From: a virus
Lineage: Duplodnaviria; Heunggongvirae; Uroviricota; Caudoviricetes
Direction: 5' to 3' (one strand)
IMG/VR virus record: IMGVR_UViG_2703718862_000005
Length of the DNA stretch: 64,000 nt
A program made the position numbers. Numbering within the stretch: the first letter of the stretch is position 1; every line of letters begins with the position of its first letter. Below are positions 31,401 to 34,400 of this stretch, one piece after another.

Positions 31401-34400
31401 AACGGTCACGACTTCAGGTCGCTTGCCACCACGGACAGGAACGACCACAGAGCGGTCAGTCAGAGTGTGGGCAATGATTGGGGTCGGTAAGCTGTTACGG
31501 GTCGGCAGGACTTCTACAGGGAACGGGATGTTCTCTTGAGCGTCCTTAAGTACACCGTTCAGCATAGCCTTAACCGTCTTAGCTAACTGGAGGGCGTAGA
31601 CCTGCGGGTCAGCGTTAGTCGGCAGACCTTCATTGACCTGAATGTTGTCGGTATCGGTGATGCGTACTGGCTCAATGCCAAACTGGAAAGCGTCTTTAAT
31701 CGTCATAATAATCAATCTCCTAAATTAGTTTAAATACTGTGAGTCCTCAAAACTGAGGAGTCCCTAACATCGGGTCAGGGACTGTGTGTCTTATAAGCTG
31801 TCCAGCCAGTTACCGCCTGACTCAAGGTCAGCGACAATAGCGGCACGGGAGCGACCAGCGGAATGGGTAGCACTGCGGAGGTTCTCACCATAGGTCCGGC
31901 GTTCAGCTTTGACCTGTTCGCGGCGCTGTAGCTCTTTCTGCCACTCTGCATCAGTCATGTTCTCTTCACGCATGCGCTCGGCCTGAATGCGCTGCTCTTT
32001 AGCGATACGCTCAGCCTCAGCTCGCTTGTTCTGCTGGCGGCGACCATAGGCGGTCATCAGGTCATTACTGAAGAAGTTGCCAATAGCTACACCAGCTTCA
32101 GCCAGAGCTTCCAGTAACTCCATAGACTCACGGCTGGTAGACGGCAGTCCTGACAGGTAGCCCGGAATCAGGGTCTTGATAGCGAGCGACAACGGATAGG
32201 ACTGACCGTCCAGACTCACAGTGTTTTCATAAAGGTTGATGTCGGTGACTGACAGCTTCCAGTTGTTGTTGTTGAACATCATAGGTAATTCTCCTCTTGA
32301 GAGTTGAGACTATCGGTATCGCAGACGCAGTAGCGCCTACGGGTCTCCCCGCATCGGTCATCTCAAAAGGTTTTAAAATTAGGCAGACAGTTTCATAGCG
32401 ACCAGTTGCGCTATCAGCTCGTCTCGGGATTGGTGCTGGCGGGTCTCATCTTCCGGGTCTAGACCAAGCTCTCTGAGGAGGACTTCAGTCCGGTAGCCAC
32501 GGTAACGGAGAGTCATGCGGCCCTCAGGTGTGCGCGGGTCAATCATCTTAGAGTCCTCCCTTAGCGCACAGACGAACCAGCTCGACCTTGTTGGACTTAA
32601 GCCACTCGTAACCCTTGGTGAGGACCTTAAGCCCCTCCTGACCGTTATAGTGGTTATCCTGAAGACGGTAATAGCCGTTCTCCAGACCCTTAGGATTGAA
32701 GCTGGTCATCCAGCCACCTGACGAGATGTCAAATACAGGCTGTCCTCGACCGTCCAGCTTGCGACTATAGAAGGGATTAGCTATACGCCCTGACTTCAAT
32801 ACGGCATTAAGAGCCTTGGCTGATACCAGCTTTGTACCTAACCTGAAGTCGAGATTCTTAAGACACTCTGTCAGGGTGTGGCCCTGCTTCGGGTTATCCA
32901 GCTTTTCCAGCCAGTTACGGGCTATAGGCTTGAGACCCTTAAGTTCCTTGGAGTCCTGCGCCAGCGCCTTAGCTTCCGACACTTTGTCGTTACGTAAAGC
33001 GATGAAAGCACGGATGACCTTAAGGTAGAAATCAGGTGAGACCCACATCGCATAGGCAATAGCCGCCTCTTCAGTAGCCCATGTCCCCGGAGTCGAACCA
33101 CCATGAGCAACATGCAGATTTGCATCTTGGTCAAGAAGCGTCCTGACGCTAGAACGCCACTGACCCGGCTCCTTAGCAGATGGAAGCTCAAGCTCTTTAT
33201 GTAGCTCGTTCAGGTTCCACATACGGTCCTGATTACAGGCCCAGTGATAGCCGTCAACGATGACAGGAAGAACTACTTCATGCTTCATTAAGGGTTGAGT
33301 TGACATATCGTTGTACTCCTTTTGTTATGCCTCCTGAAGTCACACCCTGAAAGCCTACTCAAGCCCCCAACGATAGGGAGACTCACAGGCAACAGGAGAC
33401 ATACAGAAAGACTTGAGGTAATGAGGTCGTGTGAAGACCATGTTAACTTTTTTAACAAACCCGTTTTCTGGGTTGGTTAGACTTCTCGCCAACGCGCCCA
33501 AATTTGGACCCGTTAAGAATGGTGACTGCTCAGTTTTGGGGACGTTAAGCAGGTTTCCATTTTCGCGACCTGTGATAGAGCCACCCGTTCACGGTCCGGA
33601 AATTTCCGGAGCGGTCCTCATGAAGGTGGAGACCCATGTTAATCTTTTTAACAAACCCGTTTTCTGGGTTGGTTAGATAGCGTCTGACAGAGGAGGTCTC
33701 TTCCAGCCATATAAAGGTGAGACCGCATGTCAGGACGAGCTGTAAGGACTTCCAGATGGTGAGCGGTGATAGACCCAAATCATAATGAAGACACGAGAAC
33801 GCTAACGAGCTGGAGGTCGATACACGAGGTCTGACAGAGGCGGTCACATGCCTTGATTACTTAGGAGAGATACTTAATGTCGGTTGACCAGATGCTCGCA
33901 TGTTCTGACGCATCAGACTCAGAGGCGGAGGCTGGTCTCCCTATAGTGATAGTTTAGGGTCCGTAATCATGAACCAGCTTTACTGGCGTGGTACTGGACG
34001 GATTTACTGGCGCTGACGACGGTAGCATAGACGTAGCGAGCGTAGCGAGTTGAAACCATAGGTTCACCCAAGGCAACACGCTTACGGCTCAGGGACTCCT
34101 GTACAGCGCTTACAGTTAATGTGTCGTGCGTTAGTAGTTGGGTCAGAATCAAGTATGGGCTGACAGGCTTGGTATTGCTTGCCATTGATTCGTTCAGGCG
34201 ACCAGCACCAGTAAGGACATCATCCAGCCAACCACTCAGGTCGCCCTGACCATCGAATGACAGCAGGTCCCCGCAGTGCTGCTGCAAGTAGGCTTTGGTG
34301 AACGTGTTGTCGTGAGTTGCGATTGGTCGTGCCATAGAGTATCTCCTGTAGTTGAATTAGTTGGTTCCCCTATAGTGATAATCAAGTCCATCACTGGTGA

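Follow-up and report, generated by a model that had tools for sequence, protein, structure and literature searches.

What accounts for two copies of the same hairpin-bearing sequence in the untranslated stretch that separates a phage-type promoter from the first gene downstream of it? The question is raised by the IMG/VR virus record IMGVR_UViG_2703718862_000005 (Caudoviricetes), of which a stretch of 64,000 nucleotides (nt), hereafter the window, was analyzed. Both copies lie in a ~635-nt untranslated stretch of the minus strand that runs from the phage-type promoter P2 to a gene encoding a KilA-N domain protein. The best overall explanation, to which a probability of about 0.72 is given, is that this stretch would be the leader of a phage-polymerase operon, carrying scars of a gene here called p167 and ending in a conserved 5' untranslated region (5'UTR), within an island that would be a satellite of K1F-like phages.

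Hairpin-bearing repeats in the leader

The direct repeat is 44 nt long (33438-33481 and 33634-33677), with 2 mismatches between the copies and a start-to-start distance of 196 nt, and its 25-nt hairpin core occurs exactly twice in the window, compared with none expected from shuffled sequences. On the minus strand, each copy reads AACCAACCC-AGAAAAC-GGGTTTGTT, followed by AAAAAG(A/T)TTAACATGG. These results agree with an earlier note on this DNA, made from the sequence alone, which described two hairpin-containing repeats (of 43 base pairs (bp)) in a non-coding leader transcribed from P2, a promoter whose phage type is borne out by matches of 25-26 nt to phages. The same note held that the stem-loops lack a U-run and hence are not classical terminators, which the sequence of both strands corroborates: the mRNA strand continues after the hairpin with AAAAAGAUUAAC, and the U-run on the other strand precedes the hairpin. 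An intrinsic (class I) terminator, with its G+C-rich hairpin and U-run, was accordingly rejected. The sole open reading frame (ORF) spanning both copies, also remarked on earlier for its GTG start, extends from 33431 to 33676 on the plus strand and is irrelevant, since it is the minus strand that carries the genes and promoters. Folded alone, the hairpin is not unusually stable relative to shuffled sequences (z = -0.8 to -1.6); because it is thermodynamically weak by itself, its significance rests on comparative data only.

Several known kinds of element were considered and set aside. A scan of both strands of 30000-37000 against Rfam returned no match at E <= 1. The repeats do not resemble the tandem head-to-tail RNA repeats found upstream of toxin genes in type III toxin-antitoxin systems, as the copies are 196 nt apart, have unrelated gene fragments between them, and originate from coding sequence. 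The T7 primase sites (GGGTC/TGGTC) located 3' of the hairpin are products of Met-Gly-Arg/His/Leu codons and are not conserved. Frameshifting at A AAA AAG was also discounted, as this sequence is in the wrong frame and on the wrong side of the hairpin.

Coding origin of the repeats

The source of the repeat is found in Escherichia coli CP53 (locus L003, 5723-6223), where the same 47 nt lie within an intact KilA-N-like ORF of 166 amino acids (aa), the p167 gene, and encode SLTNPENGFVKKINMG. The distal copy in the window is identical to this gene, and the proximal copy nearly so (Table 1). Of the two positions at which the window copies differ, one is synonymous when read in the p167 frame and the other exchanges Ile and Val, the pattern expected of two diverged p167 alleles. 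The p167 family comprises 43 clusters from several genera, in which the segment is native and its residues are divergent, indicating that the element belongs to the p167 gene. An intermediate state is represented by P0042 (L008), in which a longer p167 remnant is fused to leader sequence. The element occurs in 39 of 5426 complete E. coli genomes, never more than once per genome, with ~20 of the copies inside coding sequences and the rest in non-coding DNA. By these sequence comparisons, each leader repeat is a fragment of p167 coding sequence; the flanks of either repeat show no similarity to the p167 gene, in sensitive comparisons at the nucleotide or protein level. The earlier note had allowed that homologues might show the region to be an ordinary conserved protein-coding gene. 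This holds for the repeat, which is a piece of such a gene, but not for the window, which keeps only untranslated fragments of 47-49 nt.

The p167 source protein has no match in Pfam and matches phrog_129 weakly (E = 0.038), compared with 1.5e-17 for the match of the window KilA-N protein to the same PHROG. The two proteins share 27% identity over aa 71-135, and the motif pattern ..GTSW..A.EFGRWL is common to p167 and KilA-N proteins. The first-gene slot of the islands is very fluid. In E. coli CP53, a KilA-N gene truncated after ~90 codons (L003 6213-6577) is followed by the intact p167 gene; a 171-aa gene stands ahead of p167 in L015 and L016; and in P0043 the N-terminus of a Rha protein is fused to that of p167.

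Conservation of the stem-loop

Covariation in the hairpin was assessed in 13 distinct p167 alleles aligned codon by codon (alignment A2). The helix and its register are common to the alleles, whose arms differ in sequence (e.g., TAACCAACCC/GGGTTTGTTA, TTATGGGACC/GGTCGCATAA, and TAACGCGACAG/CTGTCGTGTTA). Of the hairpin cells in the alignment, 86% are paired, compared with 31-48% when the partners are slid; the covariation score is 0.534, compared with at most 0.152; and 27 cells are changed on both sides, compared with 2-6, with none of 500 shuffles performing as well on any of these measures. RNAalifold independently gives the same helix, in which stems of 4 bp and 5 bp flank a 2x2 loop and the tip is an A-rich pentaloop. 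Residues of the protein differ as a result of the compensatory changes. By comparison of the alleles, the p167 stem-loop is a genuine conserved feature of the gene, kept by compensatory changes at the expense of the amino-acid sequence. The number of G.U cells (8) shows no clear excess over that of A.C cells (~5, our own count from the alignment), and these counts were therefore set aside as not decisive for discriminating between RNA and DNA in this small hairpin.

A covariance model of the hairpin (R1) recognizes only two copies in the window at 48 bits each (33675..33649 in the distal repeat, 48 bits; 33479..33453 in the proximal repeat, 47.9 bits), with the next match at 17.6 bits, and none in the phage loci. 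In three islands (L015, L002, and L048), the model also identifies a hairpin-only copy right after the stop codon of gene 2, and in three others (L047, L049, and L050) it finds nothing, which indicates that the element is portable but not universal.

Judging from its position, the p167 hairpin appears to be the local version of an inverted repeat of KilA-N genes. The strongest inverted repeat was located in 13 KilA-N-type genes, a non-systematic sample picked from BLAST hits, and in 12 of these it lies at nt ~150-255, 17-30 codons before a YAMW(I/V)S motif. The sequences are all different, and the center is usually RAATTY; examples include the KilA-N genes of islands L047 (CGCTCCGGAAATTTCCGGACCG) and L020 (AGCTCTGCAAATTTGCAGACCT), phage P1 kilA (GAAACTATGCAGAATTGCATAGTTTC), phage mEp460 (CAACACCCAGAATTTGGGTGTTG), Ralstonia phage Heva (AACTACCGGAATTCCGGTAGTT), and Serratia phage BZS1 (CGAGGGGGGAATTCCTCCCTCG). 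For most genes, codon-shuffled versions matched the quality of the inverted repeat in 0-14 of 100 trials. In the resident KilA-N gene of the window, the top inverted repeat (CAAGATGCAAATCTGCATGTTG, 33129..33108) is at the homologous position, and a palindrome lies about as far from the start of the Rha gene, which is not a homologue. The KilA-N genes of unrelated phages, including those of Providencia and Vibrio (phage loci L051-L057), share the position of the inverted repeat, with a center that is often GAATTC or AAATTT. It is possible, though doubtful, that KilA-N-type genes in general, from island alleles and phage P1 kilA to lambdoid, Vibrio, Ralstonia, Serratia, and Providencia phages, carry a dyad or stem-loop of ~22 nt at a fixed coding position, kept by compensatory changes that override the protein, and that this would constitute an undescribed cis-acting RNA or DNA element, portable in these islands and here stacked four times ahead of a new pseudoknotted riboregulator. 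Nothing relevant was found in the literature on kilA stem-loops.

Mosaic structure of the leader

The repeats are not the only gene fragments in the leader. A fragment of the 246-aa KilA-N allele of island L047 directly follows the distal repeat and contains the top inverted repeat of that gene (CGCTCCGGAAATTTCCGGACCG, 33613..33592), and a fragment of a Rha-type first gene, which contains the near-palindrome AACGGGTCCAAATTTGGGCGCGTT (33514..33491), directly precedes the proximal repeat. The 20-nt piece AAAATGGAAACCTGCTTAAC recurs upstream of the 5'UTR in the Serratia island L020 and, as a variant with two mismatches, within an ORF upstream of the p167-like gene in L027 (in both cases, similarity was judged by eye). 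Islands L002 and L008 hold an additional p167-allele fragment of the L027 type. An alignment of the leaders of the window, L001, L002, and L003 shows that L002 (an island with a Rha first gene) contains only the distal copy, and L001 (an island with a KilA-N first gene) only the proximal copy. The window matches L002 upstream and L001 downstream of a shared segment, so its two-copy state is most simply that of a recombinant. The p167 fragments end, on their 3' side, at AACATGG(G)TC, which is the start of the 5'UTR module in other islands, and the proximal repeat of the window meets this module at the shared sequence AACATGGTC (junction compared with L047); the position of these junctions suggests recombination at the short shared sequence AACATGG(G)TC. 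Taken as a mosaic, the middle of the leader would consist of scars of cassette replacement.

Upstream of the scars, a P2-proximal segment of ~240 nt is common to the E. coli islands. This segment contains a 17-nt direct repeat, GACC(T/G)CCTCTGTCAGAC (33845..33829 and 33698..33682), and a blastn comparison of the leader and P1 region with phages revealed no similarity beyond the promoter. Islands of other genera are without the segment, and their promoter lies 25-60 nt from the 5'UTR. In L017 and L022, just 25-60 nt separate the phage-type promoter from the 5'UTR, so a long leader is not needed in general.

A conserved pseudoknotted 5'UTR

The earlier note had also proposed a structured RNA. 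Conservation by covariation does apply to the stem-loop of the repeats, although its homologues are coding genes. The most strongly structured part of the leader, however, is the adjoining 5'UTR, which the note had overlooked. The core of this 5'UTR occupies the last ~125 nt of the leader (33426-33301), preceded by a small GGTC..GACC hairpin (33439..33425). It forms an irregular hairpin of ~105 nt in which GTCTTTCT is base-paired with the Shine-Dalgarno sequence AAGGAG (33321..33316), and its minimum free energy ranges from -38 to -51 kcal/mol. Each island has a single match to a covariance model of this RNA, invariably adjoining the first gene on its upstream side, whichever gene that is; the sequence is conserved across genera, and the phage loci have no match. 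In 25 sequences, 90.1% of cells are paired (compared with 47-58% slid), 24 pairs show double changes, and none of 500 shuffles was as good. The abundance of G.U pairs indicates an RNA of mRNA sense. Outside the model, a pseudoknot helix (CTCAAG/CTTGAG, with the variants CGTAAG/CTTACG and CTCAAAG/CTTTGAG) is 89% paired, with compensatory changes in 3 of 6 pairs. The 5'UTR has no Rfam match at E <= 1. The strongly structured RNA of the leader is thus this 5'UTR and is probably functional; its predicted pairing is consistent with a translational gate on the first gene, for which RNase III is a candidate trigger. A promoter-like sequence on the plus strand, ACGATAGGGAGAC (33368-33381), is complementary to the apical hairpin (GTCTCCCTATCGT..GGGGG) of the 5'UTR and is probably no promoter. 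The islands L047 (4796-4918), L049, and L050, whose first genes encode 129 or 363 aa, have divergent leaders that score 21-26 bits with the 5'UTR model and may represent a second class of the same RNA.

The island and its putative helper phage

P2 matches Kayfunavirus (K1F-like, T7 family) and related phages at 100% over 25 nt and 96% over 26 nt, in 197 phage records, and has the identity over approximately -17 to +8 that characterizes promoters of the Kayfunavirus RNA polymerase. Transcription would begin at the first G of GGGAGA (~33941). In phage Bas105, the match to P2 is situated between the head assembly and major head protein genes, i.e., at the phi10 (gene-10) position. P2 (33959..33933) and the second phage-type promoter, P1 (34385..34362), are both TATCACTATAGGGAGA-type sites.

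The operon is part of an integrase island of ~6.5 kilobases (kb; window 29890-36412) that splits ynfE, has intact flanks, and is found in 138-140 of the 5426 complete E. coli genomes, with relatives in Citrobacter, Enterobacter, Kluyvera, Shimwellia, Buttiauxella, Pantoea, and Serratia. At its other end, the island contains a mimic of the helper concatemer junction and the start of the left terminal repeat. This segment (29969-30077) aligns with K1F at a score of 28.5 (shuffle mean 11.4, maximum 16) and has weak blastn matches in related Enterobacter phages. The alignment places ..GACCA^TCTAATACATTAAG.. of the island against ..GACCACA^TCTCACAGTTCAAG.. of K1F, and the predicted cut would be at CA^TCTAATAC. 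The island therefore combines, as sequence features, the integrase, helper-type promoters, and packaging-site mimic expected of a phage satellite, and it is on account of the helper-type promoters and junction mimic that it is read as a satellite of K1F-like (T7 family) phages, apparently switched on by T7-like phages. No description of satellites wired to T7-family phages was found in the literature.

Table 1. Features of the window, with coordinates as numbered along its 64,000 nt.
Feature	Position	Strand	Basis or remark
Integrase	36412..34829	-	PF00589
Promoter P1, second phage-type (TTGATTATCACTATAGGGGAACCA)	34362..34385	-	Upstream of 122-aa gene (34335..33967)
122-aa ORF	34335..33967	-	
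Promoter P2, T7-like phage RNA polymerase type (CCCTAAACTATCACTATAGGGAGACCA)	33933..33959	-	25-26-nt phage matches
P2-proximal leader segment, ~240 nt	33698..33932	-	Common to E. coli islands (138/5426 complete genomes)
Distal repeat, 47-nt p167-type fragment (SLTNPENGFVKKINMG codons)	33631..33677	-	100% identical to L003 gene over 47 nt
246-aa KilA-N allele fragment (..DRSGNFRTVNG)	33588..33616	-	tblastn with L047 KilA-N protein, E = 1.7e-5
20-nt piece AAAATGGAAACCTGCTTAAC	33544..33563	-	Similarity judged by eye
Rha-type first-gene fragment (LNGSKFGRVGEK)	33485..33517	-	tblastn E = 4e-4; 33 nt identical to L002 Rha gene, ~nt 186-218
Proximal repeat, 49-nt fragment of second p167-type allele (..ARSLTNPENGFVKKVNM)	33438..33486	-	47/49 nt as in L003 gene
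Conserved structured 5'UTR	33301..33439	-	Covariance model; window match 123.5 bits
Resident first gene, 252-aa KilA-N domain protein	32548..33306	-	Pfam PF04383, E = 1.3e-9
Further island ORFs of 55, 163, and ~330 aa		-	Last is a 331-aa ORF with TTG start; annotated homologues 329 aa
Mimic of helper concatemer junction and left terminal-repeat start	29969..30077	-	Local alignment to K1F 39478-39587

Comparison of the 329-, 163-, 122-, and 55-aa island proteins with Pfam, NCBIfam, PADLOC, and PDB sequences gave nothing useful, and the AlphaFold model of the 329-aa protein has a mean predicted local distance difference test (pLDDT) score of 45. The minus strand between the gene for this protein and the junction mimic (30080-30715) contains small ORFs, including one rich in Gly/Pro, as well as the short direct repeat TGGTCTGGACC. 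Several of the read-archive contigs that encode the 329-aa protein measure just 6.4-6.8 kb, about the size of the island, and might be excised or packaged copies that were assembled alone; one relative is on an IMG/VR viral contig (L044). In the Citrobacter island L005 (4495-5360), the 1.6-kb non-coding stretch that separates the integrase from the first gene contains six phage-type promoters with at least three different upstream specificities, arranged in two near-repeats, and this island may sense several different helpers. The same stretch contains many CTTAAAG/CTTTAAG/CTTAGAG motifs, which recall the CCTAAAG repeats near the ends of the T7 genome.

Alternative explanations

Under the preferred explanation, the ~635-nt stretch would be the untranslated leader of a phage-polymerase-driven operon in the ynfE island, built of three layers: P2, a copy of the helper gene-10 promoter, followed by ~240 nt; a scar zone of ~250 nt holding short fragments of alternative first genes (p167 twice, the 246-aa KilA-N gene, and Rha), presumably left as one cassette of 5'UTR plus first gene replaced another through recombination between short stretches of common sequence (e.g., AACATGG(G)TC); and the conserved, pseudoknotted 5'UTR of ~125 nt, which would pair with the first gene's Shine-Dalgarno sequence. 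The two-copy state would have arisen as a recombinant of a distal-copy-only type (as in L002) and a proximal-copy-only type (as in L001), in an order of events that can be proposed from the alignment. The copies in the leader would still fold in the P2 transcript, but judging from their fragmentary context they are most likely vestigial. Certain observations weigh against this reading. Each of the four or five fragments that make up the scar zone has an inverted repeat at its center, and a hairpin-only copy has moved to an intergenic site after gene 2 in L015, L002, and L048; both observations could mean that hairpins are retained or copied for a purpose and not left by chance. In addition, the fragments are identical to living alleles and hence young, so their substitutions give no reading of either selection or neutrality, and the survey of KilA-N-type genes drew on genes picked non-systematically from BLAST hits.

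It is rather unlikely that the hairpins, including those in the leader, are working stem-loops of the helper-polymerase transcript (e.g., an exonuclease barrier, a site bound by a helper or island protein, or a pause site) that were collected on purpose. The covariation is in the mRNA-sense orientation with 8 G.U cells, every copy is oriented with transcription, the hairpin-only copies stand just after the gene 2 stop codon, and two further hairpin fragments, which differ in sequence, are present in L002 and L008. With its A-rich pentaloop, the upper stem of 5 bp is reminiscent of boxB-type hairpins. However, L047, L049, and L050 have no detectable copy, L017 is nearly devoid of a leader, the hairpins are weak, and the G.U cells (8) are not clearly above the A.C cells (~5), counts that distinguish neither the strand nor the type of molecule. 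The KilA-N and Rha versions, moreover, are loop-less palindromes centered on AAATTT or GAATTC, unlike what an RNA hairpin needs. This last property is more in keeping with DNA: most KilA-N versions are near-perfect 22-bp palindromes whose self-complementary center (GGAATTCC, AAATTT) is typical of DNA symmetry, KilA-N is a DNA-binding domain, the allele in L015 has a crossover inside the hairpin, and mosaicism around the element is intense. The dyad could be a binding site for the protein made by the first gene or for some other dimeric factor, or a site that is extruded and cut by a junction-resolving endonuclease of the helper, seeding replication or recombination, with the leader copies as extra sites. 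A role of this kind is nevertheless distinctly unlikely, given that the arms differ wholly between close alleles with similar proteins, and one protein surface could not follow such arms unless the recognition residues were those encoded by the site itself. Additionally, the window is without p167, 246-aa KilA-N, and Rha proteins, any of which could bind the copies in the leader. The center of the p167 version is asymmetric (5-7 nt), its internal loop is conserved, and arms of 9-11 bp extrude poorly.

That the complementarity is maintained by mutation and not by function is unlikely as well. In this view, a near-palindrome that has come to exist where the gene encodes a tolerant loop would be preserved by template switching within the hairpin during replication, each arm serving to rewrite its partner, so that the arms evolve in concert and the leader copies are debris. 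Quasipalindrome correction is an established mutational process, the element is in the most variable stretch of the protein, and the pattern is found in unrelated phages with different transcription systems; yet nearly all versions keep, at a fixed position, an interior mismatch or 2x2 loop that correction should erase, and the non-homologous Rha gene has its palindrome at the same distance from the start. Highly improbable, finally, are the two remaining candidates of the earlier note, namely RNase III processing sites (as between T7 genes) and a packaging signal. T7 mRNAs are cut by RNase III, the operon has a T7-type promoter, and hairpins are present. T7 RNase III sites, located between genes, are irregular double-stranded RNA hairpins that span roughly two turns of helix and usually contain an internal loop. 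The repeat hairpin (a 4-bp lower stem, 2x2 loop, 5-bp upper stem, and loop of 5-7 nt) falls far short of this size and is situated in a leader or within a coding sequence; the long irregular hairpin of the 5'UTR (33426-33301) is the better candidate for RNase III, as a candidate only. With regard to packaging, the leader scores 12-14.5 against the K1F ends, which is the shuffle level, and it is the other end of the island (the junction mimic, 28.5 against a shuffle maximum of 16) that matches. Furthermore, the copy number of the repeats varies from 0 to 2 among islands, which also counts against these candidates.

Significance and comparison with known systems

The leader can be regarded as a record of repeated first-gene swaps in tiny islands that would read T7-like phage promoters. 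If functional, the stem-loop or dyad inside KilA-N genes, which are among the commonest gene families of phages, would be a cis-element that has been overlooked, and a 5'UTR that hides the ribosome-binding site would offer a testable handle on the timing of island expression after helper infection. A satellite wired to T7-family phages may itself be a new context.

The nearest described analogues of the island are PICMI and other small satellites of virulent phages (PMC10803314). The ynfE island shares with them a size of ~6 kb, approximately 1/6 of the helper genome, an integrase, and very few genes, and it probably depends on a virulent helper. Unlike PICMI, the ynfE island, known here from sequence, has an Enterobacterales host, contains no primase or AlpA/Fis context, and would be linked to its helper in cis through helper-type promoters and a concatemer-junction mimic. 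The 5'UTR resembles leaders that sequester the Shine-Dalgarno sequence (riboregulators, and the T7 and lambda leaders opened by RNase III) in its basal anti-Shine-Dalgarno pairing upstream of the first gene, its covariation, and its many G.U pairs, but differs from them in having no Rfam match and in the pseudoknot between its 5' flank and an 8-nt internal loop. Short dyads or stem-loops that recur at the borders of modules or within a gene for a DNA-binding protein, and that are tied to shuffling, are also known from the PeSL promoter/stem-loop cassettes of T4-type phages and from the lambda origin repeats inside gene O. In the island, by contrast, the hairpin has no attached promoter, and each gene contains a single dyad instead of an array; we know of no initiator function for KilA-N proteins. 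The closest parallel to the leader as a whole is with the mosaic scars of phages and satellites, in which cassettes are replaced through illegitimate or short-homology recombination, as in lambdoid phages: allele fragments lie beside the resident gene, junctions fall at short shared sequences, and sister islands hold different cassettes (KilA-N, Rha, p167, and others) in the same slot. What distinguishes the island from the usual mosaic scars is that several of its fragments come from the same small inverted-repeat part of analogous genes and that all are stacked in one transcribed leader.

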